Shown one piece after another: positions 1-64,000 of a stretch of DNA of 64,000 nucleotides. The DNA comes from a virus. Taxonomy: Duplodnaviria; Caudoviricetes. Numbering within the stretch: position 1 is the stretch's first letter; every line of letters begins with the position of its first letter. The DNA lies in the IMG/VR virus record IMGVR_UViG_3300017766_002535, positions 1,580 to 65,579 of that record; one strand, 5' to 3'. A program made the position numbers and the translations under genes. The notes under the pieces were generated by a model that did no database searches, was not told the DNA's origin, and was given only the letters and a program-made list of their open reading frames with translations.

Positions 1-1
1 G

Positions 2-3000
2 GCGCAGCGCCGCACCGACCAGGGCCTCAAGCCGAAGGTGGCGCAGAAGCCTGCCGATATCGGCCTGTTCGGCGACGAGATGGATCAGGCGGACTTGCTC
101 GATCGCGTTGAGCGGGCATCAGCCAACGTCGAAGCAATCGAGGCGGCGCTTGGTGACGACGCGGACAAGGTGGCGTTCGTCGACATCGCCCGCGCTGGCG
201 AGATCATGGCCGACAACCCCGGCATGGACCCAGCGACGGCGTTCAGTCAGGCCGTCGCCATAGGCGGCGTCGAGCAGGGATTCATCACCGAACAGGAAGC
301 GGAGGCGGCCTATGGCCCCGAGATCAACGACGCGCTGGAAGCCGAGCGCGAGAGGGCATCTCAAAGCGGCGAAGACGCTCTCGGCGAAGTCGCTGAAACC
401 AGCGAAGCCGGCGGCCGTGATGCAGCGCAAACTGGCGAGCTTCCGGGCAGCAGCGAAGATGGCGGCCAAGCCGCCGTCGATGACGTCGGAGCCGATGCCG
501 TCGCATCTGGCACCGCCGAGCAACCTGCCGCCGGCCGGGGTGAAGCCGCTGGGGATCGAGCCGGCGACGCCGTTGGTGACCAGCCAGCCGCCGAAACTGC
601 CGACGACGCCGAGTTAGCGCGCCGGTCTGCCGTTGCCGCGGCGTCCGACAACGTAAGCTATGGCCAGGGACCCCATTTTGCGGCAGGCGCCAGCGCGTTC
701 AAGGCCGGCGAGCCGCGCGAGCTGCCCGGCTACTTCACCAAACCGAAGCACAAGAACGCCAAGGATTGGTTCCGTGGTTACGACCGTGCGATGGCTGATG
801 CTCGCGACGCCCCGACCTGGGCCGAGATTCTCGCCACCCTGCCGATGAGCCCGGATGGCAGGACCCGCCAGTTCGAGATCGCGTTCGGCCTGATGACCGA
901 GATGACCGGCCTGCGCCAGCCGTCCTACAACGACCTGACCCCGGGCCAAAAGCACGAATTGATGAGCCGCCTTGTTCCGGCGGCAAAAGAGCCTATTATC
1001 CAGGCAGAGGACAACGCCGATGGAGTTCAAGCTCCCGTATATGCAGGCGATGCGCCAGCAAGCCCCGAAGATGTTCAACCGGCTGAGTCGGTCGGGCGAG
1101 CTGGAGGCGTTCGTGGATCAGAAGGCGACGGAAGCCAGCGCGATGTTCCACGAGCTGACGGCGAACGCGCCGAAGACGCCGGGCGGGTATCCGAGGGAGC
1201 CCGAGGCGAGCTTGGCGATCGAGCAAGTGATGGCGGCGATGCTCGACTTTCCGAAGCACGAACAGTCGACGCGGCAGATGGACGAACGAAGCGCGCTGCT
1301 CGACCAACCGCAGACGTAGGCGACAACTTCGTCATCGAGCCCGGCGCGCTCGATGAAGGCCGCGGCCAGAAGGCTAAGGCTCGCGACAACATCAAAGCCA
1401 TCGCTGCGATGCAGCTGATCGAGATGGAAGGCCGCCCGGCGACCGCCGCCGAGCAGGCCGATCTCGCGCGCTATGTCGGCTGGGGCGGCATCAAGAACAT
1501 CTTCCCCGACGATCAGGGCGCCTACGGCGACGGCTTCCAAGAGCTTGGCCCGAAGCTGCGCGGGCTGCTGTCCGATGAGGAATACGCCACCGCCCGCCGC
1601 TCGATCCAGTACGCACACTATACCGCCGAGGATGTGGTGCGCGGCATGTGGGATGCCGTCGCCAAGATGGGCTTCACCGGCGGTCAGGTGTTCGAGCCCG
1701 GCATGGGCGTGGGCAATTTCGCCGGCATGATGCCGCAAGACATCGCGGCCAATAGCCACTACCAGGGCGTTGAACTCGATCACGTCACCGCGCGCATCGC
1801 GAAACTGCTCTATCCCAAGTACGGCGTGCGCCAGGACGATTTCACCAAGACCCGGTTGCCCGAGAACAGCTACGACCTCGTGATCGGCAACCCGCCGTTC
1901 GCCGACGTCGCGATCAAGAGCGATCCGAAGTACAAGCAGGGCTTCCTGCTCCACGACTATTTCTTTGCGAAGTCGCTCGATGCCGTCCGACCGGGTGGCC
2001 TGCTGGCGTTTGTCACCAGCGCCGGCACCATGAACAAGATGGACCCGAGCGCGCGGGAATACCTCGCCGACCGGGCGGACCTCGTTGGCGCGATCCGCCT
2101 GCCGGGCGATGCCTTCCTCAAGAACGCCGGAACGGCAGTCACCACCGACATCATTTTCTTGCGCAAGCGCCTGCCGGGCGACGTGGCTGGCGACCGCTCG
2201 TGGATCGAGACCACCCCGATCACGCTGCCCGGCAAAGAGGGCGACGTGCAGGGCAGCGTGAACAGCTATTTCGCTGGCAATCCGCGGATGGTGCTCGGCC
2301 GTCAGGACTTCAACGACCGGCTCTATCCCGGCCGTTATTCGGTCAAGTCGGTGCTCGGCTCCGACCTCAAGGCGGATCTGGCCGCGGCGATCGACAACCT
2401 GCCCGCCGACGTCATGTCGCCATGGCAGGACGTCAACACCGAGCAGCACCAGCACGATTTCGACACCGCCGAGAAGAAGGAAGGGACCTATTACGTCGGT
2501 CCCGACGGCTCGCTGCATCAGGTGACGAACGGTGTCGGCCAGAAGGTGGGCCAGCGCGGCAAGGGCGTCGAGAACGGCCGCACCGCCGCCGACATGGAGC
2601 GCATCAAGGCCCTGGTCCCCGTGCGCGATGCCCTGCGCGCGGTCTATGCTGCCGACCTCAAGGGCGACACCGCCAACGCCACGCGCGCCCGGCAGGCCCT
2701 CAACAAGACCTATGACGATTTCGTCAGCAAGTTCGGCCCGATCAACAAGGCCGTGCTGCAGACGCGCCGGCCGAACGTGATCCAGATGGAGGCCGCCCGC
2801 GCCGAGGCCCGCGAGGAGGCCCGCTACGCTGACGCCGTGTTCCGCGAAGGCGACTTCGACGCCACCGCATTGCTCGACGCCAAGACGCCGCTGTCCGTCA
2901 TCGCGCGCAAGCGCCAGGAGGCCCGCGACGAGGCCGCCAAGAAGGGGCTGACGTTCGACGAGGGCGATTTCGACCCGGATGAGGTGCCCGACGTCATCAT

Positions 3001-6000
3001 CGACAAGCGCCCGAACGTCGATCCGTTCATGGACGATCCCGAGAGCTACCGGCTCCGGGCCATCGAGCAGTACGACGAGGGCACCGGGACCGGCCACAAG
3101 TCGGATGTGTTTTTCAAGAACATCATCACCCGCGAGGTGGTGCCGAAGATCAATTCGGTCAACGACGGCCTGCTCTACAGCCTGAGCCAGTATGGCCGCG
3201 TCAACATCCCGGCGATTGCCGAGATGGTCAAGAAGACCGACGCCGAGGTTGTCGAGGCGCTGGGCGATCAGGTGTTCAAGGTGCCCGGCACCAAGGACGC
3301 CTTCCAGACCCGCGACGAATACCTCTCCGGCAACGTGCGCAAGAAGCTGGAACAGGCGCAGCGCGCGGCCGATCGCAACCCGGAGTTTCGCCGCAACGTC
3401 GCCGCCCTGGAAGCCAACCAGCCGACGCCGCTGGCTCCGTCGCAGATCCATGCCTCGCTCGGCATGCCGTGGATCCCGCCGGCAACCATCCAGCAGTTCG
3501 CCCGCGAAGAACTCGGCATCGACAACACCAAGGTTCGATACACCTCGGCGCTGGCGTCGTGGACGGTCTCCGGCGACACGGATTCCGTTGCCTCCCGCTC
3601 GACCTGGGGCACCGAGGACCGCCGCGCGCCCGCGCTGTTGCAGGACGCGCTCAACCGGCAGACCACCAAGATTTACGACACAGTGTTTGTCGACGGCAAA
3701 AAATCTCAGGTGCTCAACATCGCCAAGACGGAAGCCGCGAACGACAAGCTGACGCAGATGCGGGAGAAGTTCTCCGGATGGATCTGGACCGATCAAGCGC
3801 GCTCCGACACGCTGGCCGCCTATTACAACGAGAATTTCAACAATCTCGTGGTGCGGGAGTACAACGGTGACTATCTGACGACGCCGGGAATTGCCTCCGA
3901 TTGGTCATGGCGCCCGCATCAGAAGCGCGTCATTGCCCGCATCATCCAGTCCGGCAACACCTATGTCGCGCATGCCGTCGGCGCCGGCAAAACGTCCGAG
4001 TATATCGGCGCCATCATGGAAATGCGCCGGCTCGGCCTTGTGCGCAAGCCGATGGTCGCTGTGCCGAACCACATGCTCGCGCAGTTCACCCGGGAATGGT
4101 ATCACCAGTACCCGACCGCGCGCCTCGCCATCGCCGACGACAAGCGGTTCCACACCGACCGCCGCAAGCAGTTCATCGCCAACGTGGCGATGGAGGACCT
4201 CGACGCCATCATCATCACGCACTCGTCGTTCGGGATGATCCCGGTTTCGGATGAGTTTCAGAACAGCGTTGTTGAGCGGGAAATTGCCCAGTACCGCGAA
4301 GTGCTCGCCAGCCTCAAATCCGAGGGCGGCGACACCCGCATCACCCGGTCCCGCATCGAGAAGCAGATCGAGCGGCTTGAGCAGCGCCTTGTCAGCCGCA
4401 AGGGCCGCAAGGACGCGACGTTCACGTTCGAGGAGATGGGCGTAGACCACCTCACGATCGACGAGGCGCACCTGTTCCGCAAGCTGGACTTCTCCACCGC
4501 GATGTCGAACCTCAAGGGCGTCAGCCCCGAAGGCTCGCAGATGGCGTGGGACCTCTACGTCAAGTCGCTCTATCTCGACACGATCCGACCCGGCCGCGGG
4601 CTCGTGCTCGGCTCCGGCACGCCGATCACCAACACCATGGCCGAGCTTTATACTTTGAGCCGCTACCTGCAGCCCCAGGTGCTCGCCGAGCGCGGGCTGG
4701 AAAAGTTCGACGCATGGGCCGGCGCCTTCGGCGAATCGGTCTCCGAGCTGGAACAGGACCCGGCGGGTAATTACAAGCCGGTCTCGCGCTTTGCCAAGTT
4801 CGTCAACGTCGCCGAACTGTCCGCGATGGTGCGGCAGATCATGGATGTGGTGACGTCCAAGCAACTCGAACAGTATGTGACGCGTCCGCAGATCAAGGGC
4901 GGCAAGCGAACTCTGCATCTCGTTGAGAGGTCACCCGAGCAGCTGAGGTTCCAAGAAAAGCTCGCCGCTCGGATGAAGAAGATTGCCGAGCGCAAAGGCC
5001 CTCCACAAAAGGGCGACGACATTATTTTGAGCGTCATCGAGGACGGTAGACACTCGGCGATCGACATGCGGTTGGCTGGCGGCGACAAGAGTTCGTCACC
5101 ATCCAAACTCGACTACATGATCAATAGGGCATTCGAGATTTGGAAGGATACCAAAAATCAGAAGTTCTTCAAGGTAGCGAAGGGCGGCGGGTACGATACG
5201 AAACCAGCGATGAGCGGCCCCGCCACGCAACTGATCTTCAATAATCTTGGTATATCCGGCTCCCGTGGCCTTGCTGTGCCGGAGTACATCCGTGCCGAGA
5301 TGGTGCGGCGCGGTGTGCCAAAGAATGAAGTGGCGTTGATCTACGATTACAAGTCGGCGACCGCGAAGCAGCGCCTGTTCAACGACATGAACGAGGGCAA
5401 GGTCCGCATCCTGATCGGCTCCGTTGCCAAGATGGGCGTTGGCACCAATGTGCAAAAGCGCCTGTATGCGATCCACAACATGGACCCGCTATGGTACCCG
5501 GCAGACGATGAGCAGCGCAACGGTCGCGGCATCCGCCAGGGCAACATGAACCCTGAGATCGAGATCAACGACTACGCGACAAAGGGCACCTACGACTCCA
5601 CCATGTGGGGCATGATGGCGAAGAAGGGACGCTTTATCGAAGGGTTTTTCGAGGGCGACCCGTCGCTCCGCGACATGGAGGACCTGGGCGAGGCCAGCCA
5701 GTACGAGCTGGCAAAAGCCATGACCACCAACGACCCGCGCCTGATCCGCTTCACCGAGTTGAAGCAGGAGCTTGAGCGCGCCAACCGGCGCAAGTCGGCC
5801 TTCGACAGCGACGTCTACGCCACCCGGCAGAACCGCCAGCGGTCCAAGGCGCAGATCGAGCACTACACTCAGCGCGTCGAGGACACGAAGAAGGACATCA
5901 AGCAGCGCGTCGACACGCGCGGCGACGCCTTCTCCGGCAAGGTCGGCAAGGAGACCTTCGACAAGAGGGCTGATTTCGGCGTGGCGCTGTTCAATCGGTT

Positions 6001-9000
6001 GGGCACGCTGGAAGAAAGTGGCTCGCTGGCCGGCGGCGTCAAGGTTGCCACGGTCGGCGGTTTCGACATCTATGCGACGGTCAAAAAGTCGAACCTTATT
6101 AAAGATCAGACCAACGTCGACGTGTTCATGTCGCTGAACGGGAACGCGACCCGCGAGGTGAGCTACGAGACGTCATCGCTCGGCACCGTCCGCTCCATCG
6201 AACACATCCTGCACGGCTTCGAGACCGACCTTGCCGAGTATGAGGAACGGCTGGCGAAGGCCACCAAGTTCGTCAAGGATTCGGAAGCCAAGGCGAACGC
6301 CAAGTTCGAGGGGCAGGCCGACATCGACGCGCTGACCAAGCAGGTTGCCGACATGGCGGCCGATCTGGCGAAGCCGGTCGAGGAGACCGCCGCGCCGGTG
6401 GAGATGACCGAGGAGGGCGACGAGGAGCTTGCCTCGCTCTCGGATATGTCCGGCGTCACCTTGACGCCGCAGGCCGAGGAAATGTACGCGCGCATCCGCG
6501 ATATGCTGGCGTTCACCGTGCGCAAGATCGCGGGCGATGTCCCGTTGGATTTCCACATTGGGCTGATGCCGGTGGAGCCGCCGCCAGGGTATCCGGCTGG
6601 CATGAAAAACGAGGCCGGCGGCCAGTACAGCCTCGGCAGTTCGCTAATAAAGTTGGCGCTGACCACCGACGCCGACCAAATGGCAAAGTCGGCCTTCCAC
6701 GAGTCGTATCACCACATCGAAAACAAACTGCAGACTCCGCGCGAGCGGGAGTTGATGCAGTTGGAGACGCCCAGGCTGCGCCAGTACATCAAGGGGCGCA
6801 CCAAGCTGACCGACGCCATGATTGACGGGCTGGCTGGCTTCGAGGTGCGCGCCATTGCTTTCCAGACCTACGCTCACGATCGAGCAAACAAAAAGAAGGA
6901 TGCCGGCGCAGGCATCCACATCGGCGTGCGGCGTTGGTTTGATCGACTGCTCGATCTGCTCGATCGTATCCGGAACGGCCTGCGTGGGCTTGGCTTCCAG
7001 ACCTATAAGGACGTATTCAAGGATGCCTTCGAGGGCAAGTTCGCCGGGCGCGCCAAGCAGGAAGGCATCAACATCGATCCGAAGTCGGTCGCGGCGATGG
7101 ACGAGGCGACGAGCGGCGATACGCTGGCATCGCTCGCGGACATCTACAGCGCGGTCGACACCCGCATCCGCAGCAAGTTCGGCGAGCGCTTCACCGAGTT
7201 GCGCGTCAAGCTGCAGGACCGCTTCATCCGCGTCCGCAACGTGCAGGACTCCTTCGGCGGCGTGCCGCTGGCGCAGAACGCCTACATGGCTGAAACCCTG
7301 CTGCCGGGCCGCACCGGCTTCCGCCTTGAGGAGCTGGAGCGCACCAAGATCGAGCCGATGATTGCCGAGATGGAATCGCGTGGCGTCTCCCTGGAGGAAG
7401 TCAGCGATTATCTCTACGCCAAGCACGCGCCCGAGCGGAACGCGGCGATGGACGCGATCAACCATCCGAACCTTGACGGCACCGGCGGGCGGGATCTGCG
7501 CGGCAAGGGCTCCGGTATGTCGGATGAGGAGGCGGCCGAGATCATGGACCGGATCCGCAACGGCAACCGTCTGGCGGATTTTGAGGCCGTCGAGGCGATG
7601 GTGCGCGACATCCAGCAGGGCACGCTCGATACGCTGGTTGAATACGGTCTCATCAGCGAGGAGACGGCAGCAGCCTGGGCGTCGCAGTATGATCACTATG
7701 TCCCGCTGCAGGGCTTCGACGAGGCGTTCGAGGATGAAACCTTGGCCGGGCAGCGCGGAGCCGGCCTCGATACTCGCGCCAAGGAATCCAAGCGCGCGTT
7801 CGGCCGGTTGAGCAAAGCCGCCGGGCCGCTGCCCTACATCCTGATGCAGGCACAGCTGGCGATCGTGCGGGGCGAGAAGAACCGGGTAGGCAACACCTTC
7901 CTCCGGTTGGTGCGGGCGCATCCGAACCCGGCCCTGTGGTCGATCAACACGCCAAAGCTGGTTCCGACCATCGACCACAACACCGGCCTCGTGACGATGA
8001 TTGCCGACACGAACTGGCACAACGATCCCAACGTGTTCGTGACCAAGATCGGCGGCCAGATCAACGTCATCCGGCTCGAAGGCAAGGACGGCCAGAACAT
8101 CGCCCGTGCGCTCAAGAATATGGGCGTCGAGGAGCTTGGCTGGGTTCTCAGCTTCATCCGGCCGCTCACCGTGACGATGGCGCGGCTTTCGACGCAGTGG
8201 AATCCGAACTTCATCCTGCCGAACTTCGCCCGCGACCTCGGCGAAGCCTACATCAACATGCAGGCGCAGGAGCAGGCCGACTTCATCAAAAACTTCACCA
8301 AGCACCTGATCCCGGCGATTGGGGGCTCCTTCCAAGCCATGCGCGGCCAGGGCGGCGGGCGCTACGCTGACGCCTTCCGTGAATACGACAAGGCCGGCGG
8401 CCGTGTCCGCTTTTTCGGCCTCGACAATGCCGCCGACATGGAAAAGGCCATGCGCCGCCAGATGCGCGCGTTGCAGGGCGGACCCGTCGCCAACATTCAG
8501 GAGATGGGCAAGCAGATCGGCGATGCGCTCGACCTGATGAGCGGGCCGATGGAGAATGCGACCCGGTTGGCCGCTTACATGGCTGCGCGCGATGCCGGCA
8601 TGACCATCCCCGAGTCCGCAAACCTCGCTCTGAATATCACGGTCAACTTTGCCAAGGGCGGCGAGCTTCGGGCTGTGATGAACTCGCTCTATATGTTCTC
8701 CCAGGCTGCGCTGTCAGGCGCGCGGCGCAACATCCACGCCTTGAAGAACCCGCACGTTCGCCGCGCCACCTATGTCTTGGTCGGCATCGGCGCCCTCAGC
8801 GCCGTCCTCGGCTTCGGCGCCGGTGGCGACGACGAGGCCGGCGAGAGCTACTACGGCAAGATCCCGCATTGGGAGCGCGACAAGAACCTGATCATCATGT
8901 GGCCCAAGGGCTTCGGTCGCGATGGCGGATACATCAAGATCCCGACGCCGTTCCTGTTTGGCACCATGAAGGTGATCGGCGATCGGCTTGCCGGTTTGGC

Positions 9001-9814
9001 GATGGGCAAGGACAAGATCGGCGAGTCGGTCGGCGCCGTGCTCAAGTCGCTGATCGACAGCCTCAACCCGCTCGGCGAGGAATCCGTCAGCCTGTTTTCG
9101 CTGGCGCCGAGCGTGACGCGCCCGCCGCTGCACATCGCCACGAACAAGAACTGGAACGGCCGCCCGGTCTATCCGGAGCGCGACTTTGAGAAGAACAAGC
9201 CGGAATCCGAGCAGTTCTTCGAGACGACGCCGGGCTATGCCAAGGACGCGGCGCGGGGCCTGAACAAGCTTGGCGGCGGCTCGCCCTACAAATCGTCGGG
9301 AACGCTCGACGTGCATCCAGGCTCAATCCAGCACACGCTGGAAAGCATGACCGGCGGCCTCGGCAAGTTCATCAGCGACGTTGCGGGGACCGCGGAGCGG
9401 GCATGGAAGGGCGAGGCATTCGATCCGACCAAGGCGCCGATCATGCGCCGGTTTGTCGGTTCCTCCGGCACCGGGCAGGCGGACAGCGCCCGTTACTATG
9501 CCGAGCGCGATGAGGCCCGCAAAAACGGTGGAGACGCCATCAAAAATGCTCGCAAAGATAGAGCGAAAGGCGTCAATAGGGACGACGCTGATTCGTTCCT
9601 GAAAGACAATACCAATTCGACCCGGGGCGAACAGATATTCAAGAGTGCCGACGCCCTGATGAAGCCGCTGCGGGATCGTAAGAGCCGCATCGAGGGCAAG
9701 GACTCATTCAGCGATACAGACCGCGCAGCGGTCGAGGAAATCAAGCAGCGCATGCGGGACATCCAGAACCGGGCGCGGAAAGAGTATCGAGAGCTAAAGC
9801 AGGGGGCACCGTGA
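2..9814 (+). CDS. Giant polyvalent internal-virion (ejection) protein, C-terminal part; DarB-like N6-adenine MTase + SF2/SNF2 helicase + HExxH metallopeptidase + LPD38-like C-terminus; open at left edge
   Basis: Frame is open from base 2 (AQRRTDQGLKPKVAQK...), so the track start at 38 is not the real start; 3270 codons. Motifs: FEPGMGVGNF (~1690) and NPPF (~1889) for the MTase; AHAVGAGKT (~3968), TIDEAH (~4455), SGTP and EQRNGRGIRQGN for the helicase; FHESYHHIE (~6695); YYGKIPHWERDKNLIIMWP...YIKIPTPF (LPD38-like). Confidence 0.9.
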   Translation, partial: AQRRTDQGLKPKVAQKPADIGLFGDEMDQADLLDRVERASANVEAIEAALGDDADKVAFVDIARAGEIMADNPGMDPATAFSQAVAIGGVEQGFITEQEAEAAYGPEINDALEAERERASQSGEDALGEVAETSEAGGRDAAQTGELPGSSEDGGQAAVDDVGADAVASGTAEQPAAGRGEAAGDRAGDAVGDQPAAETADDAELARRSAVAAASDNVSYGQGPHFAAGASAFKAGEPRELPGYFTKPKHKNAKDWFRGYDRAMADARDAPTWAEILATLPMSPDGRTRQFEIAFGLMTEMTGLRQPSYNDLTPGQKHELMSRLVPAAKEPIIQAEDNADGVQAPVYAGDAPASPEDVQPAESVGRAGGVRGSEGDGSQRDVPRADGERAEDAGRVSEGARGELGDRASDGGDARLSEARTVDAADGRTKRAARPTADVGDNFVIEPGALDEGRGQKAKARDNIKAIAAMQLIEMEGRPATAAEQADLARYVGWGGIKNIFPDDQGAYGDGFQELGPKLRGLLSDEEYATARRSIQYAHYTAEDVVRGMWDAVAKMGFTGGQVFEPGMGVGNFAGMMPQDIAANSHYQGVELDHVTARIAKLLYPKYGVRQDDFTKTRLPENSYDLVIGNPPFADVAIKSDPKYKQGFLLHDYFFAKSLDAVRPGGLLAFVTSAGTMNKMDPSAREYLADRADLVGAIRLPGDAFLKNAGTAVTTDIIFLRKRLPGDVAGDRSWIETTPITLPGKEGDVQGSVNSYFAGNPRMVLGRQDFNDRLYPGRYSVKSVLGSDLKADLAAAIDNLPADVMSPWQDVNTEQHQHDFDTAEKKEGTYYVGPDGSLHQVTNGVGQKVGQRGKGVENGRTAADMERIKALVPVRDALRAVYAADLKGDTANATRARQALNKTYDDFVSKFGPINKAVLQTRRPNVIQMEAARAEAREEARYADAVFREGDFDATALLDAKTPLSVIARKRQEARDEAAKKGLTFDEGDFDPDEVPDVIIDKRPNVDPFMDDPESYRLRAIEQYDEGTGTGHKSDVFFKNIITREVVPKINSVNDGLLYSLSQYGRVNIPAIAEMVKKTDAEVVEALGDQVFKVPGTKDAFQTRDEYLSGNVRKKLEQAQRAADRNPEFRRNVAALEANQPTPLAPSQIHASLGMPWIPPATIQQFAREELGIDNTKVRYTSALASWTVSGDTDSVASRSTWGTEDRRAPALLQDALNRQTTKIYDTVFVDGKKSQVLNIAKTEAANDKLTQMREKFSGWIWTDQARSDTLAAYYNENFNNLVVREYNGDYLTTPGIASDWSWRPHQKRVIARIIQSGNTYVAHAVGAGKTSEYIGAIMEMRRLGLVRKPMVAVPNHMLAQFTREWYHQYPTARLAIADDKRFHTDRRKQFIANVAMEDLDAIIITHSSFGMIPVSDEFQNSVVEREIAQYREVLASLKSEGGDTRITRSRIEKQIERLEQRLVSRKGRKDATFTFEEMGVDHLTIDEAHLFRKLDFSTAMSNLKGVSPEGSQMAWDLYVKSLYLDTIRPGRGLVLGSGTPITNTMAELYTLSRYLQPQVLAERGLEKFDAWAGAFGESVSELEQDPAGNYKPVSRFAKFVNVAELSAMVRQIMDVVTSKQLEQYVTRPQIKGGKRTLHLVERSPEQLRFQEKLAARMKKIAERKGPPQKGDDIILSVIEDGRHSAIDMRLAGGDKSSSPSKLDYMINRAFEIWKDTKNQKFFKVAKGGGYDTKPAMSGPATQLIFNNLGISGSRGLAVPEYIRAEMVRRGVPKNEVALIYDYKSATAKQRLFNDMNEGKVRILIGSVAKMGVGTNVQKRLYAIHNMDPLWYPADDEQRNGRGIRQGNMNPEIEINDYATKGTYDSTMWGMMAKKGRFIEGFFEGDPSLRDMEDLGEASQYELAKAMTTNDPRLIRFTELKQELERANRRKSAFDSDVYATRQNRQRSKAQIEHYTQRVEDTKKDIKQRVDTRGDAFSGKVGKETFDKRADFGVALFNRLGTLEESGSLAGGVKVATVGGFDIYATVKKSNLIKDQTNVDVFMSLNGNATREVSYETSSLGTVRSIEHILHGFETDLAEYEERLAKATKFVKDSEAKANAKFEGQADIDALTKQVADMAADLAKPVEETAAPVEMTEEGDEELASLSDMSGVTLTPQAEEMYARIRDMLAFTVRKIAGDVPLDFHIGLMPVEPPPGYPAGMKNEAGGQYSLGSSLIKLALTTDADQMAKSAFHESYHHIENKLQTPRERELMQLETPRLRQYIKGRTKLTDAMIDGLAGFEVRAIAFQTYAHDRANKKKDAGAGIHIGVRRWFDRLLDLLDRIRNGLRGLGFQTYKDVFKDAFEGKFAGRAKQEGINIDPKSVAAMDEATSGDTLASLADIYSAVDTRIRSKFGERFTELRVKLQDRFIRVRNVQDSFGGVPLAQNAYMAETLLPGRTGFRLEELERTKIEPMIAEMESRGVSLEEVSDYLYAKHAPERNAAMDAINHPNLDGTGGRDLRGKGSGMSDEEAAEIMDRIRNGNRLADFEAVEAMVRDIQQGTLDTLVEYGLISEETAAAWASQYDHYVPLQGFDEAFEDETLAGQRGAGLDTRAKESKRAFGRLSKAAGPLPYILMQAQLAIVRGEKNRVGNTFLRLVRAHPNPALWSINTPKLVPTIDHNTGLVTMIADTNWHNDPNVFVTKIGGQINVIRLEGKDGQNIARALKNMGVEELGWVLSFIRPLTVTMARLSTQWNPNFILPNFARDLGEAYINMQAQEQADFIKNFTKHLIPAIGGSFQAMRGQGGGRYADAFREYDKAGGRVRFFGLDNAADMEKAMRRQMRALQGGPVANIQEMGKQIGDALDLMSGPMENATRLAAYMAARDAGMTIPESANLALNITVNFAKGGELRAVMNSLYMFSQAALSGARRNIHALKNPHVRRATYVLVGIGALSAVLGFGAGGDDEAGESYYGKIPHWERDKNLIIMWPKGFGRDGGYIKIPTPFLFGTMKVIGDRLAGLAMGKDKIGESVGAVLKSLIDSLNPLGEESVSLFSLAPSVTRPPLHIATNKNWNGRPVYPERDFEKNKPESEQFFETTPGYAKDAARGLNKLGGGSPYKSSGTLDVHPGSIQHTLESMTGGLGKFISDVAGTAERAWKGEAFDPTKAPIMRRFVGSSGTGQADSARYYAERDEARKNGGDAIKNARKDRAKGVNRDDADSFLKDNTNSTRGEQIFKSADALMKPLRDRKSRIEGKDSFSDTDRAAVEEIKQRMRDIQNRARKEYRELKQGAP
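312..617 (+). CDS. Nested +1-frame small basic protein (overprinted in giant gene), paralog of 63314-63466
   Basis: GGAGG at 301-305, 6 nt before ATG 312. Host-frame third positions are raised in A/T (~37% by my count). Shares [RK][WF][KR]P..H.[KR].A..L and [FM]R..A[KR].AAK motifs with the nested ORF at 63314. Confidence 0.55.
   Translation: MAPRSTTRWKPSARGHLKAAKTLSAKSLKPAKPAAVMQRKLASFRAAAKMAAKPPSMTSEPMPSHLAPPSNLPPAGVKPLGIEPATPLVTSQPPKLPTTPS
1020..1319 (+). CDS. Nested +1-frame TnpV-like protein (99 aa) overprinted in giant gene
   Basis: GAGGA at 1007-1011, ATG at 1020. The nested frame has typical high-GC codons while the host frame is ~59% A/T at third positions (58/99 codons). Pattern MRQQAPKMFNRLSRSGELEAFV...A...F..L...AIEQVMAAML resembles TnpV (PF14198) by eye. 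Confidence 0.75.
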   Translation: MEFKLPYMQAMRQQAPKMFNRLSRSGELEAFVDQKATEASAMFHELTANAPKTPGGYPREPEASLAIEQVMAAMLDFPKHEQSTRQMDERSALLDQPQT

Positions 9815-29718: not shown

Positions 29719-29798
29719 GCCGAGGGTAGCTCAGTCTGGTAGAGTGCTTGGGTTGTAACCCGAGAGGTCGGTGGTTCAAATCCATCCCTGAGGCTCCA
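29719..29798 (+). tRNA. Atypical tRNA (Thr-UGU-like) with an 8-nt anticodon loop and 8-pair acceptor containing tandem G.A mismatches
   Basis: D arm GCTC-AGTCTGGTA-GAGT; anticodon stem CTTGG/CCGAG around GTTGTAAC; variable AGGTC; T arm GGTGG-TTCAAAT-CCATC; encoded CCA end. Confidence 0.75.
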
Positions 29799-56922: not shown

Positions 56923-57828
56923 ATGTGCTTCGGCTCGGAAGAAACCAATCGGAAGACGTCCACCTCGACCGCCGACCCGGCGGTGCGCAACGCTGCGGTC
57001 GGCAACCTCGACTTCGCGACGGCACTCCGCGACAAGGGGTTCCAGGGCTATAACGGCCAGCAGGTTGCGGGCTTCTCGCCCGACCAGCAGGCGTCGTTCG
57101 GCCTGACGAACGCGATTGTCGGCAACGGCACCGGCACCAAGGCGACCGGGCTGATCGACCAGTATTCCGCCGCCCCGGCTCAGAACGTCAACGCCAGCAC
57201 CATCCAGTCGGCGATGTCGCCCTACATGAACGAGTACGTCATGCGGGCGCTGGCGCCGCAGATGGCGCAGATGGACATCACCAACGCGAAGGACAACGCT
57301 GCGGTGAACTCGCAGGCGACGTCGAGCGGCGCGTTCGGTGACGCTCGCGCAGGCATCGAGGCGTCGAACACCCGGTTCAACCAGAACGTCCAGCGCGAAG
57401 GCGTGATCGGGCAAGCCTACGACAAGGCGTTCCAGACCGCGATCGGCGCGGGCGCGACCGACGTTTCCAACAACATGAACGCGCAGACGGCCAACGCCGG
57501 CTACAACGAGGCCGCGCTGGCGCGCGCGCTCGGCGGCTCGAACGCCTTGCAGGGATTGCAGAACCAACAGCTCGGCGTTGCCGGTGCTCAGAACGCCATG
57601 GGCGGTCAGCAGACCGCGCAGGATCAAGCCAACCTCACCGCTAACTACAACCAGTGGCTTATGGCGCAGCAGCAGCCGTATCAAGCCGCGGGGCTCGTGA
57701 ACTCGACCGTCAACGCGGGCGCGAACGCGATGCCGGCACAAAAGACCGAGGTATCCGAGGCGCCGAACAATTCCGGCTGGGGCGTGGCCGGCGCCGTCGG
57801 CGGCACGCTTCTCAGCGCATTCATTTAG
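56923..57828 (+). CDS. Ejection (DNA transfer) protein 1
   Basis: Gln/Asn/Ala-rich; SSGAFGDARAGI; TQ..NL.A.Y.QW; Gly-rich hydrophobic C-terminus. Confidence 0.75.
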   Translation: MCFGSEETNRKTSTSTADPAVRNAAVGNLDFATALRDKGFQGYNGQQVAGFSPDQQASFGLTNAIVGNGTGTKATGLIDQYSAAPAQNVNASTIQSAMSPYMNEYVMRALAPQMAQMDITNAKDNAAVNSQATSSGAFGDARAGIEASNTRFNQNVQREGVIGQAYDKAFQTAIGAGATDVSNNMNAQTANAGYNEAALARALGGSNALQGLQNQQLGVAGAQNAMGGQQTAQDQANLTANYNQWLMAQQQPYQAAGLVNSTVNAGANAMPAQKTEVSEAPNNSGWGVAGAVGGTLLSAFI

Positions 57829-57840
57829 GGGCACTGGGTC

Positions 57841-59175
57841 ATGGCTGGACTTTTCGACTGGTTGACGGGCGCGATGGGCGGCGGCGACATGAGCGGCGGC
57901 TTGCCGCCCGGCATGAGCCCTGGTGGCGGTCAGATGCCGGGCATGCCGCCGGTGCAGACGCTGGACACCGCGCCTGCGCCGATGCCGCCGCCGCCGATGC
58001 CGCCCGGCGTCGACCCGATGGGCGGACAAACCGGCATGGATATGCAGGTCGGTGCGCCGCCACTCCCGCCGCCGATGAGCCCGCCCGACGGTGGGTTTAT
58101 GTCGCCAGCACCGCCGCCGCCCGCGCTGCCGCCGCCCGACGGCGGCATGATGCCCATGCGCAACGCGCCGATCCCGCCGCCGGATGGTGGCATGATGTCG
58201 CCGAGCGGTCCCGTGCCGATGCCTGCACCGCGCCCGCCAGGGCTCGGCGGCGGTCCTGCCGCGATTCCTCCTGCGGTCGCACCGACCGGCGGCGCCGGGA
58301 TGCCCCCCGGCCCGCCGATGCAGCTTCCCGGGCCGACCGGCGCACCACCTCCCGACCAGGGCGGCAACGCGCTTACGCGCGCTCTCGGGCTCGATCCGAA
58401 CCGTGCTCGCGCGGCGATGGGCGGGCTCGGCGCCGGCCTCAAGGCCGCTGGCGAGAACTCGCACAAGCCGGGGCTGGCGGCGTTCTCCGGCGGCGCTGGC
58501 GCTGCGATCGAGGGCGGCCAGAAGACCGACGACAAGACCTTCGAGAAGCAGGACAAATATCTGCAGCGCGCGATCCAGGCTCAAAAGGAGGGCAACACCG
58601 CCGCCTACCAAACCAACTACCTGAAATATCAGATCGAGGCCGCCAAGGCGAAGCTCGAAGTCACCAAGGCCACCGCTGCAGCCGGCGGCAAGGGTAGCGT
58701 CGTCAACTCGCCCGAGCAGCTGTACCTGCGCGCGGTCGGCGCGACCAATCAGGACGCCAGCATCAAGATCAGCGCCAACACCGTCAAGGAGGCGCAGAAG
58801 CAGTTCGGTGCCGACAGCAAGGAAGCCAAGGCGGCGCTGGCTGCGCACGAGAAGCAGATCGAGACCGTGCGCAACGGTCATTTCCAGACGCTCGGCATCG
58901 ACCCGAAGTCGGTCAAGGGGCTGGAATCGAAGGAGGGCTTCTCCGATAAAAATCCGGTCAAGAACTTCCCGAAGGACCCGAAGGCGGCGCAGGCCGCGTT
59001 CGACGCGCTGCCGGATGGCGCCTACTTCATCAACCCGAAGGACGGAAGGCTGTTGACGAAGAAAAGCGCCGGTGGCGCGGCGGCGCCGAATCCGGCACAA
59101 CCAGCGGGCGCGCCGATGGGTCCGCCCATGCCCCCGTCGCTGAACCCGGTCCCCCAGCTCGAAGACGCGGAATAG
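57841..59175 (+). CDS. Ejection protein 2, Pro/Gly/Met-rich
   Basis: Low-complexity N-half (PPPDGG repeats), helical C-half; between ejection protein 1 and the giant protein. Confidence 0.7.
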   Translation: MAGLFDWLTGAMGGGDMSGGLPPGMSPGGGQMPGMPPVQTLDTAPAPMPPPPMPPGVDPMGGQTGMDMQVGAPPLPPPMSPPDGGFMSPAPPPPALPPPDGGMMPMRNAPIPPPDGGMMSPSGPVPMPAPRPPGLGGGPAAIPPAVAPTGGAGMPPGPPMQLPGPTGAPPPDQGGNALTRALGLDPNRARAAMGGLGAGLKAAGENSHKPGLAAFSGGAGAAIEGGQKTDDKTFEKQDKYLQRAIQAQKEGNTAAYQTNYLKYQIEAAKAKLEVTKATAAAGGKGSVVNSPEQLYLRAVGATNQDASIKISANTVKEAQKQFGADSKEAKAALAAHEKQIETVRNGHFQTLGIDPKSVKGLESKEGFSDKNPVKNFPKDPKAAQAAFDALPDGAYFINPKDGRLLTKKSAGGAAAPNPAQPAGAPMGPPMPPSLNPVPQLEDAE

Positions 59176-59181
59176 CAGCCG

Positions 59182-62100
59182 ATGGCGTTTGAAGACTCGC
59201 TCATCGGCAACGGCGACGATTTCGACCCGCACGCGGCCACGGAAAGCCTGATCCGTCAGGTGACGCCCGAGCCGCTGCCCGGTGGTTCGCTGGATCCGCG
59301 CATGCTCAACACGCGGCTGGCGCGCAAGCTCGGCAGGCCGACACCAGTTGAGCCGATGCCGTCGGTCGCAGAACCGGGACATCTCGAGCAGCAAACCCCC
59401 GATTTTAGCGCCCAGGCGATCGAGCCTGCCGCGGCGATCAGCACCGATGCGGATTTCAGCGGTCAGGCGGTCGAGCCGCCGATGATCGGCCCGGAAGCGC
59501 CGCCTGCCACGAACAACCCGAGCCCATCCTACGCGGTCGAGTTCGGCAAGGGTGTAGCCGAGGGCGGCAAGAACATGGGTGCAGCCGCGCTCAAAGGTGT
59601 GGCCGCCGTCGGCATCCCGACCGTCGCCGCACCGGAATTGCTCGACGAGCTCCAAAACCTCAAGGACAAAACCCCGGCCCAGCTCGCGAAGCTGCAGGGC
59701 CGGGTGCTGCGCGATGTCAGCGACCGCGGCCTGCAGATGGACTATATCGCGGCTCTTCGACGGATTTCGCAGGGTGCGGACCCGAAAGCCGAGGTTGAGA
59801 CCCTAAAACCCAAGTTCGAGGCCAACAACAAGCGCGCGACCGAGCCCGTCGCCGACAAGCCTCTCTTCAAGGCCGGTCAGGCCGTCGAGGAGTTCGGCAA
59901 GGAGACCTTGAAGGCCGCGCCAGGGTTCGAGGGATCGTGGACCCGCGACATCGGCTCCGGTGCTGGCTCGATGGCCGCCGGCATTGCGCTCTCGATGGTC
60001 CCGGGCATCGGCCCGGCCGCCGCCGGAACACTGTTCACCGCTGCGGGCATGGGCGAGGCGGCAGATCGCGCCGTCAAGGGCGGTGCCACGCCGGAGCAGA
60101 CCCGGTTGGCCGCCAAGCTCGGCGGCGTCGCCGGCGCTACCGACCTCGTGGATGCGCTGATCCCGATGCTCGGCGGGACCGGCAAGGCGCTCGGCTTCAT
60201 CAAGCGCATGGGCGTCGCCGCAGTGAAGGGCGCGCTGATGGAGGGCGGCCAGGAGGGCCTGCAGCAGCTCGCGCAGAACGCGATTGCGAAGGGCATCTAC
60301 AAGCCCGATCAGGATCTATTTGAAGACGTGCCGCGCTCGATGGCGATTGCCGCCATCTTGGGCGGTGCCGGAGGCGGCATCAGCGGTGCTGCGTCTCGCG
60401 ACCGGCAGGATGCCCCCGCCGGCATTGCGCCACCGCCCGGTGGCGGCGCGGCTCCCGGCCCCAGCGGCGATCCCGCTGGCGGCCCCTCATCCCCCGACGA
60501 CATCGCCGATTTCGTTCGGCGCGCGCGCGAGAGCGCACCACCGCCCGAGGGCGAGAACACGCGAGCGAGTGGCGCCGACACGCGATCGAGTGCCCCCGAT
60601 CCGGCCTCCATGTCGGAGGCCGAGCGTCAGCGCGCCTACACGGCGTCGCGCGAATCGCACGGCGGCGCGTCCGAAACCGAGATCCTCAAGGCCGCCGGGC
60701 TCGACCCGGCCGCGATGGACGAACAGGAGCGGATTGACGCGGTAATCCGGGCCACCAAGGGCGCGGGTAGCCAGAAGCCAGCCGGCGACCCAGCCGCAGA
60801 GCAGCCGGCGGCTGGCCCACGGCAGGAGGCCCCGGAAACCGAGGGTTCCCACCTCCGGTATGCCACCCTGCGGGAGGCTGGCTATTCCGACGAGGATATC
60901 GACAATATGTCGGCGTCGCAGCGGAAAGCCGAGTTCAACGATGCCATCGCTGCCGGGATCAAGCCCGGCGCGGCGATGACGAAGCACAAGAAGCGGGCAC
61001 CGAAAGCGGCCGAGACTGCGCCAGAGCAGCCTGCAAGCAGTCCGGAGCGCCCGGTCGACACCGGCATGGGTTTCGGCAACCTGGGCAACGCCGGCAAGGA
61101 CATCGGTGACAGCCTGCGCGATCATCTATGGTCCCGCGCCGAGGCCGGAGAGGTCACCGAATCGTCAACCGGCGGCCCGAGCGCGTTGCTGCAGGGCGCG
61201 AAGATGGTGCGTGAGCGCGGCGGCCTGAAAACCCGCGACGAGTTCGTGGCCTACGCCGAGGAACAATCGAAACTTACGCCGGGATCGCCGACCTTCCAGC
61301 AGGACATGCGCGCCCTGGTCGAGAAGCACTCGAAGAACGACACCGGCCAGAACGTGCCGGAGAGCCGCGCCACGCTCAAGGCGCAGCAAAACCAGCTGAT
61401 CGCCGGCGAGCGCGCCGCGCAGATGTTCCCGAAGGGCACGCGCGAGATGCCGCTGCCGCCCGGCATGGAGCGCGTCGAGACCGAGCGCGGGATTTTCCAC
61501 TTCGACCCGAAGAAGACCACCGCCAAGAAGATCACCGAGGCCAGCGCTGCAGGCCGCGAGAACGAATTGCTCGGGCTCGGCTCCTTCTCCAAGGCTGACA
61601 TTGAGCAGCGCCAGGGCGAGCGGAACGTCACGATCGTCGAGCGCACGCCGGACGGCACCGAGGTGCGCGCCGCCGTTGGCACGGAATCCACCGCGGATCA
61701 GCAGCGCGCCGAAATGGAGAGGGGCAAGAGCCCCGGCAACACCGTGTCGTTCGAGACCGCCGAGCAGACGCTCGACGGCCGCAAGCCGAAGGGCACGCGC
61801 GCCGATCCGATTGAGATCAAGAGCGCCGCCGACGTCGACGCGGTAGCGAAGCCCGCCACCAACGAGCACACGCATGCGCAGGGTGAGGCGAACAATCGCC
61901 AGCTCGGCCACGGCAAATGGAACGGCCTGCCAATCTCGATTGAGGTCGCGCCCGGCGGCGTCCGCAAGATGGTCAACCCGGAGACCGGCGAGAACGTCGA
62001 GGTCACGCACGGCGGCGCGGCCTACGGCTATTTCCCGGGCACCGTCGGTGCCGATGGGATGCACGTCGACCTGTACCTGGGCAACGCGCCCGACAGCCCG

Positions 62101-64000
62101 ACCGTTTATGTGTTCGACGAGATCGACAGCCGCACCGGCAAATTCCGCCAGCACAAGGTCATGGGCGGATTCCGCACCGAGCAGGATGCGTTCGGCGCCT
62201 ACATCGGCACGTCGACCAAGAGCGCGGAGACGCTGGGCGCAAGCACGCCCATGTCGGTTGATGAGTTCAAGACTTGGCTGGCGGAAGGCGACACCACCAA
62301 GGCGCTACAGCCGGATGTGTTGCGCGAGAAGAAGCGCGAGGCTCGCAAGGCCGAGCGCGAAGAACGCAACACGCCGATGGCGCTGGAAGATGTGCCGGAT
62401 TCGACGATCAATCGTTTCAGCAAAAAAATGCTGGAACGGCTGTTCGATGAAAGCGGCGAGCGCATCACCGACATTGTTGTGCAGCCGGGGCGAGAGGCCG
62501 CAACCCATTTTGATCGCGCCGGTCTCACTGGCGAGAACGGGCTACTGACGCGCGAGGGTGTTCAAAGGCTCATCGCCGAGCAGGACCGGCGTAAACTGGC
62601 ATCCTCGGGACCCGTGAAGGCCGAGGATGCCAGTCCCGCGTCTGCTGAGGCCGCACGTACATCCGGCGCAGTCCCGAAGGAAACCCCAAGCCCGGCGCCG
62701 GGGGCGGAGGCCGGTGGGTCCAAGCTTGCAACGCAGAAAAAGCCGACCAGTTCCGATGAGACGGTGACGCTGCTGCAGTTCCTCGCCAGCCGCGGCGGGC
62801 TCGCGCCGGATCCGGAACTCACCGCGCTCGACATCGGCGACCACCGCGTCCAGATCCCGGGCCGCAAGGGCTTCTTCGGTCTCATCCGGCCCACGGGCAT
62901 GAAGCTCGACATGGCGCGCGAGGCGGCCGAGGAGGCCGGCTACCTGCGCGGCGAGCACAACAAGACGTCGACCGTCCGCGATTTGCTCGATGCGATCGAC
63001 GAGGGCCTGCGCGGCCAGCACAAGGTTGCCGAAGGCGACGAGGGCAAGACCACCAAGCGGCAGCGCACATCGCTCAAGGAATCGAGCGACGCGGCGCGCG
63101 ACGCGGCGATCATCGCCAACACCGAGGCGATCCAGGCTGAATACACCGAGCTTCCGGAAGGTCTCGCCGAGCAGGCCGCGACCATCATGGCCGACGAACT
63201 GCTTGACCTCGACAGCGCGGTCGAGATGGCCGCGGTGCGCGCGGTCAACGAGGATACCGATTTCGAGATCGACGACAACAGCATCGTTGAAACCTATGGC
63301 GATGGAGTGTTCCATGAAATTTCGCCCGGACCAGCACCAAAGGATGGCGGGGCTTCTGCATCAGCGGGCGATCAAGAGCAACGACCCGGTGAAGGCAAAG
63401 AAGCAAGCGGCGATGGCAAACCTGATGCGCGTGCTGGCGAGGAAGGCAGCGAAGCGGAAGGCATAGAGCGGCCATATCCCTACACGGCAGACCGCACCCA
63501 GCCGACGCAAATTGTCCCGCTCCCGATGGAGCTGGCCGAGTTTGCTGAGATCACCGACGAGTGGGCGGCGCTGTTCGCCGACCCCGATCAGCGCGTCAAC
63601 CTCGAAACCAAGCTGGGCAAGGGTCCGTTCATCCCGCTGGCGGAAGCGCAGGCGCGCGTCGACCAATGGCGCGCGGACGCTGCCGCCCAAGCCGAGAACT
63701 CTGAAACCTTCCAGGCCAACAGCACCAAGACCATCCTCTCGCTGTACGACCTGACCGGCAATTGGGCGCGTCCGTGGGCCGAGGCTGGCTACAACGTGCT
63801 GACGTTCGACATCCAGTCCGGCCAGGACGTTCACGATTTCAGTGTCGAATGGTTCAACGACAACTACGACATCACCGACGTCTACGGCATGTTGATCGCG
63901 CAGCCCTGCACCGACTTCGCGGTGTCGGGCGCGAAGCACTTTGCCAAGAAGGATGCTGCCGGCGACACCGCAAGGTCGATTGAGCTGGTTCATCAATCGC
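59182..64000 (+). CDS. Giant polyvalent ejection protein, N-terminal part (>=1606 aa, open at right edge; not in ORF track); inorganic-pyrophosphatase-like and C5-cytosine MTase domains
   Basis: I read the frame codon by codon from ATG 59182 to 63999 with no stop. GLPISIE...YGYFPGTVGADGMHVDLYLG...HKVMGGF (61924-62290); ILSLYDLTGNW..PW.EAGY.V..FDI..G.D...IAQPCTDFAVSG (63727-64000). Confidence 0.9.
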   Translation, partial: MAFEDSLIGNGDDFDPHAATESLIRQVTPEPLPGGSLDPRMLNTRLARKLGRPTPVEPMPSVAEPGHLEQQTPDFSAQAIEPAAAISTDADFSGQAVEPPMIGPEAPPATNNPSPSYAVEFGKGVAEGGKNMGAAALKGVAAVGIPTVAAPELLDELQNLKDKTPAQLAKLQGRVLRDVSDRGLQMDYIAALRRISQGADPKAEVETLKPKFEANNKRATEPVADKPLFKAGQAVEEFGKETLKAAPGFEGSWTRDIGSGAGSMAAGIALSMVPGIGPAAAGTLFTAAGMGEAADRAVKGGATPEQTRLAAKLGGVAGATDLVDALIPMLGGTGKALGFIKRMGVAAVKGALMEGGQEGLQQLAQNAIAKGIYKPDQDLFEDVPRSMAIAAILGGAGGGISGAASRDRQDAPAGIAPPPGGGAAPGPSGDPAGGPSSPDDIADFVRRARESAPPPEGENTRASGADTRSSAPDPASMSEAERQRAYTASRESHGGASETEILKAAGLDPAAMDEQERIDAVIRATKGAGSQKPAGDPAAEQPAAGPRQEAPETEGSHLRYATLREAGYSDEDIDNMSASQRKAEFNDAIAAGIKPGAAMTKHKKRAPKAAETAPEQPASSPERPVDTGMGFGNLGNAGKDIGDSLRDHLWSRAEAGEVTESSTGGPSALLQGAKMVRERGGLKTRDEFVAYAEEQSKLTPGSPTFQQDMRALVEKHSKNDTGQNVPESRATLKAQQNQLIAGERAAQMFPKGTREMPLPPGMERVETERGIFHFDPKKTTAKKITEASAAGRENELLGLGSFSKADIEQRQGERNVTIVERTPDGTEVRAAVGTESTADQQRAEMERGKSPGNTVSFETAEQTLDGRKPKGTRADPIEIKSAADVDAVAKPATNEHTHAQGEANNRQLGHGKWNGLPISIEVAPGGVRKMVNPETGENVEVTHGGAAYGYFPGTVGADGMHVDLYLGNAPDSPTVYVFDEIDSRTGKFRQHKVMGGFRTEQDAFGAYIGTSTKSAETLGASTPMSVDEFKTWLAEGDTTKALQPDVLREKKREARKAEREERNTPMALEDVPDSTINRFSKKMLERLFDESGERITDIVVQPGREAATHFDRAGLTGENGLLTREGVQRLIAEQDRRKLASSGPVKAEDASPASAEAARTSGAVPKETPSPAPGAEAGGSKLATQKKPTSSDETVTLLQFLASRGGLAPDPELTALDIGDHRVQIPGRKGFFGLIRPTGMKLDMAREAAEEAGYLRGEHNKTSTVRDLLDAIDEGLRGQHKVAEGDEGKTTKRQRTSLKESSDAARDAAIIANTEAIQAEYTELPEGLAEQAATIMADELLDLDSAVEMAAVRAVNEDTDFEIDDNSIVETYGDGVFHEISPGPAPKDGGASASAGDQEQRPGEGKEASGDGKPDARAGEEGSEAEGIERPYPYTADRTQPTQIVPLPMELAEFAEITDEWAALFADPDQRVNLETKLGKGPFIPLAEAQARVDQWRADAAAQAENSETFQANSTKTILSLYDLTGNWARPWAEAGYNVLTFDIQSGQDVHDFSVEWFNDNYDITDVYGMLIAQPCTDFAVSGAKHFAKKDAAGDTARSIELVHQS
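63314..63466 (+). CDS. Nested +1-frame small basic helical protein (50 aa) overprinted in giant gene
   Basis: GGAG at 63304-63307, ATG at 63314; MKFRPDQHQRMAGLLHQRAIKSNDPVKAKKQAAMANLMRVLARKAAKRKA; host-frame third positions 60% A/T (30/50) versus mostly G/C in the flanks. Confidence 0.7.
   Translation: MKFRPDQHQRMAGLLHQRAIKSNDPVKAKKQAAMANLMRVLARKAAKRKA

Follow-up and report, generated by a model that had tools for sequence, protein, structure and literature searches.

The subject of this study is a stretch of 64,000 nucleotides of viral DNA (Duplodnaviria; Caudoviricetes; IMG/VR record IMGVR_UViG_3300017766_002535), hereafter called the window, which belongs to a single-contig assembly of 65,579 bases, apparently derived from a freshwater metagenome, and contains both ends of a giant DarB-like gene. 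Judging from sequence comparison, this late gene of a Bcep22-like podophage very probably contains three regions which are read in a second frame as well. Frame 0 would yield one virion-type polyvalent protein of 5,362 residues comprising InPase, C5-methyltransferase (MTase)-like, N6-MTase, helicase and LPD38 modules, while the +1 frame would yield separate proteins of 50, 101 and 99 amino acids (aa) at three inter-module linkers, designated n3, n1 and n2, respectively. Each of these small proteins would be produced by internal initiation at its own Shine-Dalgarno (SD) sequence and start codon within the giant mRNA and would end at its own stop codon. The host frame over n1-n3 would be under selection for the absence of stops only and would in this way supply the giant protein, at no cost, with probably disordered spacers that are acidic and rich in Gly, Ala, Asp, Glu and Arg.

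Read circularly and with the duplicated assembly end removed, the host gene is an open frame of 5,362 codons (16.1 kb) which runs on the plus strand from window position 59182 through the contig end and the contig start to window position 9814. Each of the three nested elements is a complete open reading frame (ORF) located on the same strand within this frame and shifted by +1. The n3 ORF (63314..63466, plus strand) encodes 50 aa from an ATG which follows the SD sequence GGAG (63304..63307) at a distance of 6 nt; the predicted protein is helical, rich in Lys, Arg and Ala and has an isoelectric point (pI) of 12.0 (the program-listed ORF begins at an ATG at 62990). The n1 ORF (312..617, plus strand) likewise starts from an ATG 6 nt behind its SD sequence GGAGG (301..305), and this ATG sits in the host codons TAT-G of the conserved host motif EAYG. 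Its product of 101 aa (pI 11.9) is predicted to form two helices with an invariant RKLAS-RAAAK block followed by a Pro-rich tail. Finally, n2 (1020..1319, plus strand; program-listed ORF from a TTG at 972) encodes 99 aa from an ATG preceded at a distance of 8 nt by GAGGA (1007..1011), with a pI of 5.3 and a prediction of four helices. The three ORFs and their SD sequences are present as the first-pass annotation of the window had described them.

The same annotation had characterised the host frame over these ORFs as a low-complexity linker rich in A/T-ending codons and the nested frame as ordinary high-GC protein, and both statements hold. A/T-ending host-frame codons account for 61% over n3, 59% over n2 and 37% over n1, compared with 18% in the whole gene and 15% in its enzymatic 3' half. 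Gly, Ala, Asp, Glu and Arg make up 65-70% of the host-frame residues over n1-n3, and the host reading of the n3 region is an acidic Gly/Glu/Ala linker. The GC content per codon position over n1-n3 fits that of a normal gene read in the +1 frame, the GC content at third codon positions of the nested frame being about 0.9. In a sliding log-odds scan of codon usage over all 5,362 codons, the +1 frame beats frame 0 only at 63292-63470, 341-620 and 971-1320, in addition to a marginal segment at 60367-60470. The latter is rich in Pro, Ala and Gly, no ORF with an SD sequence is seen in it, and its signal is probably due to composition alone.

Comparative loci (numbered with the prefix L) comprised the contigs of homologues together with additional loci taken from collections of viruses, genomes and metagenomes and represent about 16 distinct lineages; L004, which contains several frameshifts (also in n3 and the MTase), and the decayed remnants L012 and L010/L025 were excluded as evidence on frame conservation either way. 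For n2, 32 called homologues of 99-100 aa share 65-86% identity. Throughout the approximately 16 lineages, the n2 ORF is situated in the +1 frame inside a frame which is open from one contig end to the other, the third frame containing 3-7 stops, and the identity of the nested protein falls to as little as 44% (L027). All 17 n2 loci possess their own stop codon as well as an SD-like motif 5-9 nt ahead of an ATG, GTG or TTG, compared with a background rate of 14%. SD sequence, start and stop are likewise kept for n1 and n3 in those loci which reach far enough; at the position equivalent to that of the n3 SD sequence, AGGAG, GAGGAGG and GGAG are found in L009, L015 and L031. The conservation of an own ribosome-binding site and start codon thus extends to all three ORFs. 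Randomly distributed +1-frame stops and an unconserved SD sequence or ATG in relatives, which the first-pass annotation had named as speaking against genuine genes, were not encountered, since the +1 frames show no random interruption and the SD sequence and start codon remain at a fixed place.

The host frame is conserved in a different sense. Over n2 it contains no stop in any of the 17 nested loci, while resampling of codons given the n2 protein leaves it stop-free in 7-17% of trials per sequence, and free-standing copies of n2 do carry host-frame stops (five in L026, one in L020). Blind codon-usage scans of seven related giant ORFs found n2 again in all seven cases and n3 or n1 in several. 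In L028 the gene caller listed all three small genes in a row. The spacing between n3, n1 and n2 amounts to 50-316 nt in L009 and L028, with a gap between n3 and n1 of 196-316 nt; in the present genome, 2.3 kb of in-frame host domains lie between n3 and n1, and the gap between n1 and n2 is 400 nt. Such variable spacing with in-frame host domains supports the notion, as far as sequences can tell, that the gene has continued its life as one polypeptide. The small domain which the host frame encodes between n1 and n2 (620-1018) is also present in L019 and L029 and absent from L009 and L028; it could be assigned to no family, the sole match being one to RMF below threshold (E-value (E) 0.0086).

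Selection was assessed frame by frame as the ratio of non-synonymous to synonymous differences (pN/pS) from Nei-Gojobori pairwise counts. For n2, nested values of 0.18-0.65 are opposed by host values of 1.25-2.13. The medians are 0.63 (nested) and 1.33 (host) for n1 and 0.55 and 1.42 for n3, the pattern being present in 35 of 36 and in 10 of 10 pairs, respectively, although these counts represent consistent trends rather than independent tests as the pairs share ancestry. In the flanking control, formed by the 150 MTase codons just downstream of n2, the situation is reversed, with 0.03-0.3 in the host frame and values above 1 in the +1 frame. Re-alignment on the host protein, which removes alignment bias, left the outcome unchanged. 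Purifying selection is hence observed on the nested frame and not on the host frame and, together with the SD sequence and start found in 17 of 17 n2 loci, agrees with the proposal of the first-pass annotation that the linkers house genes which would be translated independently. Both readings are apparently maintained over n1-n3, the nested one for its protein and the host one for continuity only, because nested pN/pS is low and the host frame is stop-free in all nested copies while stops occur in free-standing ones.

Cultured phages possess a comparable arrangement. In both JC1 gp69 and Bcep22 gp75, the codon-usage scan reveals a +1 segment just ahead of the MTase module, corresponding in Bcep22 to an ORF of 107 aa (L033:11405-11728) with the SD sequence GAAGGAGG and in JC1 to an ORF which likewise has an SD sequence (L032:4404-4742). 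This counterpart surfaced only by means of the scan, as tblastn with n2 against phage and plasmid collections gave no match. The Bcep22-type ORF is found by tblastn in 41 phage records (10 from Burkholderia and 31 from Ralstonia), always under the coding sequence (CDS) of the giant protein and never annotated. The ORF of Gervaise, GP4 and Gerry is shifted by +1 relative to the annotated CDS, is preceded by CAGGAGG and stops just before the start of the module. Close pairs give a nested pN/pS of 0.16-0.57 as opposed to 0.9-8 in the host frame. The Bcep22-type ORF appears to be the positional counterpart of n2, and homology between the two is no more than suggestive. A second, shorter +1-favoured segment is present in the DarB-like genes of Bcep22 (L033:9628-9778) and JC1 (L032:2714-2909), the translations of which are not obviously alike. 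The nested genes are listed in no complete phage record that was inspected, those of Bcep22, JC1 and the Ralstonia phages included. The expectation that gene callers would miss all of them is correct for these records and fails for metagenome fragments, in which n2 (32 proteins), n1 (three) and n3 (one) have been called.

Several points weigh against a gene read in two frames and should be considered next to the shared ancestry of the pairs. For n1 and n3 few homologues have been called, and n1 is of low complexity with a poor fold model (predicted local distance difference test (pLDDT) 64). Between the distant Bcep22 and Ralstonia sequences pN/pS is saturated and uninformative, and the resemblance of the Bcep22-type ORF to n2, which consists in a common K/QAP..Y/F..G.L motif, is weak (hhalign probability 48%). 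Moreover, that the nested frames are translated, and that the giant frame is read through them, is what we infer from selection only.

The history of the locus can be approached through the relatives of n2 outside giant genes. A profile search yields 189 clusters, most of them 60-140 aa in length, matching from residue 1 and mostly free-standing. Free-standing copies follow DUF2280 genes in integrase-AlpA-primase islands, precede a terminase-small-like gene (L023) or lie beside an integrase, and they start at the equivalent Met (MEFK...). In addition, residue 1 of the free-standing DarB protein of phage P1 projects to about 10 residues past the n2 stop. Because of these free-standing clusters, the restriction of the genome-normal codon signature to the nested frame and the start of P1 DarB at the end of n2, we infer that, at least for n2, the small gene came first and the linker is the younger, overprinted reading. 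The first-pass annotation had envisaged small genes overprinted on the giant gene; given the mostly free-standing clusters of around 100 aa, the direction has to be reversed for n2. An older operon composed of an upstream virion gene, the small genes and a DarB-type gene may have been joined via the -1 frame with its scarcity of stops; alternatively, the small genes may have been inserted into linkers.

Fusions and insertions involving the small genes are found as well. The protein P0039 (L038:4033-4491), encoded free-standing beside a tyrosine integrase and two HTH_17 genes, consists of 152 aa in which n2 is followed by n3, and this fusion suggests that the two may act together. In P0079 (L040), an n2-like, an n3-like and a helical host-type domain are strung together in one frame and are followed by a second n2 copy read in its -1 frame. 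In L001 (62-526) and also in L002, an HNH homing-endonuclease gene (phrog_3377, E 4e-40) has settled in the nested +1 frame where n1 begins, with the ATG of n1 itself as its start, and the giant frame stays open through the 155 codons of this insertion. A Ferrovibrio metagenome-assembled genome contains a 555-codon ORF (L010:6623-8290, identical to L025) which passes through two n2-like copies in their -1 frame and adjoins ABC-3C defence genes (DUF2326, CTD10); it appears to be a decayed piece of a giant gene within a bacterial chromosome.

Such observations raise the question of whether the giant gene is one gene at all, or rather an operon made up of a virion gene upstream, the three small genes and a DarB-type gene, bridged by a stop-free frame devoid of function. 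Gene callers indeed split L001, L004, L005 and L028 into small genes and a large downstream gene, P1 DarB is free-standing and begins where n2 ends, GC-rich genes by their nature contain few stops in the -1 frame (0.0185 per codon), and this frame is also open in two free-standing n2 relatives (L022, L023). However, the upstream reading is unstopped in all of the approximately 16 lineages and in Bcep22, JC1 and the Ralstonia phages, while a frame would be expected to remain open with a probability of about 0.1-0.17 over 100 codons, or of about 0.01 over the 250 codons which the three ORFs comprise together, and stops do occur in the free-standing copies L026 and L020. Host-frame domains of variable size have furthermore been inserted between the nested genes with the frame unbroken (2.3 kb between n3 and n1 compared with 196-316 nt), and the frame is open even over the inserted HNH gene. 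We therefore regard an operon with a meaningless bridging frame as improbable.

As an alternative to internal initiation, a programmed +1 frameshift or quadruplet decoding, perhaps by an odd tRNA, would lead to truncated giant proteins with basic tails instead of free small proteins. The window does contain a tRNA-like gene (29719-29798, plus strand) which passes the Rfam tRNA model with 36.6 bits and to which ARAGORN assigns no anticodon. Its anticodon arm CTTGG-GTTGTAAC-CCGAG can be drawn with an 8-nt loop, GUUGUAAC, holding a possible four-base anticodon UGUA (for UAC or UAU plus one base), or with a 6-bp stem and a 6-nt loop. UGUA could read UAU-G, and all nine n1 loci have the ATG of n1 within host TAT-G, so that a +1 shift at this site would enter n1; in three of four loci, TAT-G or TAC-G is found 18 nt before n3. 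A conserved shift site at the entry of each +1 ORF was nevertheless found for n1 (TAT-G) only, as n2 lacks any Tyr codon between the preceding +1 stop and its start and L015 has TTT ahead of n3. The host codon over the n2 start varies (GAT, AAT, CGT, CTT, TAT, AGT), a shifted frame would need neither a conserved SD sequence nor a start codon varying among ATG, GTG and TTG only, and the free-standing relatives begin at the equivalent Met. Frame shifting in place of internal initiation is accordingly very improbable, although it could coexist with the latter. Non-coding open frames arising by chance over low-complexity linkers would be compatible with the number of +1 open runs of at least 100 codons in the giant gene (13 seen, 13.7 expected from synonymous resampling), which shows that length alone does not exceed chance, and with the SD-like motifs frequent in purine-rich linkers (ahead of about 13-14% of +1-frame start codons), but this explanation is hardly conceivable in view of the conserved boundaries and SD sequences in relatives, the nested pN/pS below 1 and host pN/pS above 1 with their reversal in the flanking control, the free-standing homologues and the protein-like fold prediction of n2, being refuted for n2 and unlikely for n1 and n3.

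With regard to function, none of the three small proteins has a significant family match in Pfam, NCBIfam or PHROGs. The mildly acidic, helical n2 gives a protein-like AlphaFold model (pLDDT 73), for which Foldseek found no match in the PDB or BFVD at E<=0.001, and a search of the ESM Atlas with n2 led to unnamed clusters and a weak lead to TnpV only. TnpV (PF14198) was rejected as an identification, as n2 scores 12.5 bits (E 0.15) and its relative P0054 18.4 bits (E 0.0022), far short of the Pfam cut-off of 27 bits. TnpV, the small protein of Tn4451-type transposons, is similar to n2 in its size, its helical character and its occurrence on mobile elements near recombinases. To our knowledge it has no known function, and the likeness for this reason explains nothing. 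An assignment of n2 as a Dar accessory protein of the Ulx type of P1 (hhalign probability 0.1%) was likewise discarded, n1-n3 paralogy found no support (hhalign probability 0.7%), and the C-terminal extensions of longer n2 relatives contain no Pfam domain. The small proteins may tentatively be considered partners of the giant protein, involved in its assembly, its packaging or the control of neighbouring MTase modules, although a general mobile-element function unrelated to the giant protein seems about as likely. Against a partner role speak the free-standing n2 relatives on (short) contigs without a visible giant gene as well as the lack of any fold or family match hinting at a function.

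The assignment of the host gene to the DarB-like, phage-type polyvalent proteins is based on the presence of an N6-adenine MTase and a helicase together with InPase and LPD38 in one polypeptide, as found by Pfam matches to InPase, N6_Mtase/Eco57I, helicase and LPD38. Its 5' part (59182..64000, plus strand, codon starts = 1 mod 3) harbours the InPase match and runs on through contig bases 1-1579 outside the window. The 3' part (1..9814, plus strand, codon starts = 2 mod 3) contains, in this order, a helical domain, the n1 linker, the small domain at 620-1018, the n2 linker, N6-MTase, helicase and LPD38. The start of the DarB-homologous N6-MTase module (1322..3400, plus strand, host frame) is located one codon past the n2 stop. 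Directly 3' of n3, the host frame enters a C5-cytosine-MTase-like module (63526..64000, plus strand, continuing off the window edge) which is recognised by motifs alone (PCTDF..., ENPV...) and found no support in Pfam and PDB sequence searches. By blastp, the giant protein shares 29% identity with P1 DarB over 190 aa (E 5e-20), and in blastn the MTase-helicase part of the gene shows similarity to DarB-like genes from Bcep22-like, Ralstonia and Erwinia phages. The assembly ends overlap exactly by 123 bp inside the giant gene (window 63878-64000 = contig bases 1-123), a multiple of three which, left uncorrected, would add 41 false codons to it; from this overlap, the genome is circular or circularly permuted. 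Upstream of the giant gene lie terminase, portal, head, tail-fibre and ejection-protein-like genes (the latter at 56923-59172) and downstream of it a transglycosylase gene. A promoter scan indicates one weak sigma-70-like site at 180-207 and none near n3, which was not used as evidence. JC1 gp69 has been detected in virions (PMC9144972). By analogy with this protein and in view of its position behind the ejection-protein-like genes, the giant protein may be packaged in the virion and injected.

Genes embedded out of frame are classic in phages, an example being gene E inside gene D of phiX174. In lambda and in Bcep22-like phages, Rz1 lies inside Rz (PMC9144972; PMC5295617). As in this pair, the products of which are both thought to be made and to work together, a whole small gene is contained here in a larger one on the same strand, in the +1 frame and with its own ribosome-binding site. 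In contrast to Rz/Rz1, where both frames are structured and constrained, three genes reside in one 16-kb gene, each of them in an inter-domain linker, and the host reading is unconstrained save for the avoidance of stops; moreover, at least n2 appears to be older and widely free-standing, with the host linker as the novel reading. The host gene itself, with InPase, LPD38, MTase and helicase, is typical of the phage-type polyvalent proteins described by Iyer, Burroughs, Anand, de Souza and Aravind in 2017 (PMC5512222). That survey describes no second reading frame, and the words overlapping, frameshift and linker are absent from it (PMC5512222). The first-pass annotation had considered the layout undescribed for this protein class, and we too have found no paper reporting nested genes in DarB-like or polyvalent proteins.

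The second system to be compared is the Dar system of P1, which consists of DarB and the small accessory proteins Hdf, DarA, DdrA, DdrB and Ulx (as cited in PMC9144972; see also PMC9024508 and PMC12810830). Dar function requires Hdf, DarA, DdrA, DdrB and Ulx, and no homologue of these is known in Lessieviruses (PMC9144972). Common to both is an MTase-helicase anti-restriction protein, which in P1 is packaged and dependent on small co-encoded proteins, and the DarB-homologous module starts here right after n2. In P1, however, the accessory genes are separate cistrons (ulx is situated downstream of darB), and n2 does not resemble Ulx in sequence. The small proteins would represent the counterpart of those P1 accessory proteins which have not been found in Bcep22-like phages; that the giant protein depends on n1-n3 is a guess. 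Extending this thought, each enzymatic module could travel with a small partner in the preceding linker (n3 ahead of the C5-MTase-like module, n2 ahead of N6-MTase and helicase), the partners jointly folding, silencing or packaging the giant protein and being the Dar accessory factors which Bcep22-like and Ralstonia phages have so far seemed to lack, while the linkers would serve as landing sites for small genes, even homing endonucleases, with the giant frame unbroken. We put forward this combined scheme as a possibility which is rather doubtful.

DarB-like giant proteins occupy a fifth of the genome in Bcep22-like, Ralstonia and many uncultured podophages, in which accessory proteins of the P1 type have not been found. 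Conserved small proteins hidden in their linkers are testable candidates for folding, silencing or capsid loading of the giant protein in phages which are already in culture, and one base change silent in the giant frame is sufficient to remove each nested start. So-called “disordered linkers” in polyvalent proteins can be wrong-frame readings of real genes, with consequences for annotation and for disorder predictions. Finally, the arrangement offers a model of polyprotein growth in which neighbouring cistrons would be bridged via the stop-poor -1 frame of GC-rich genes.

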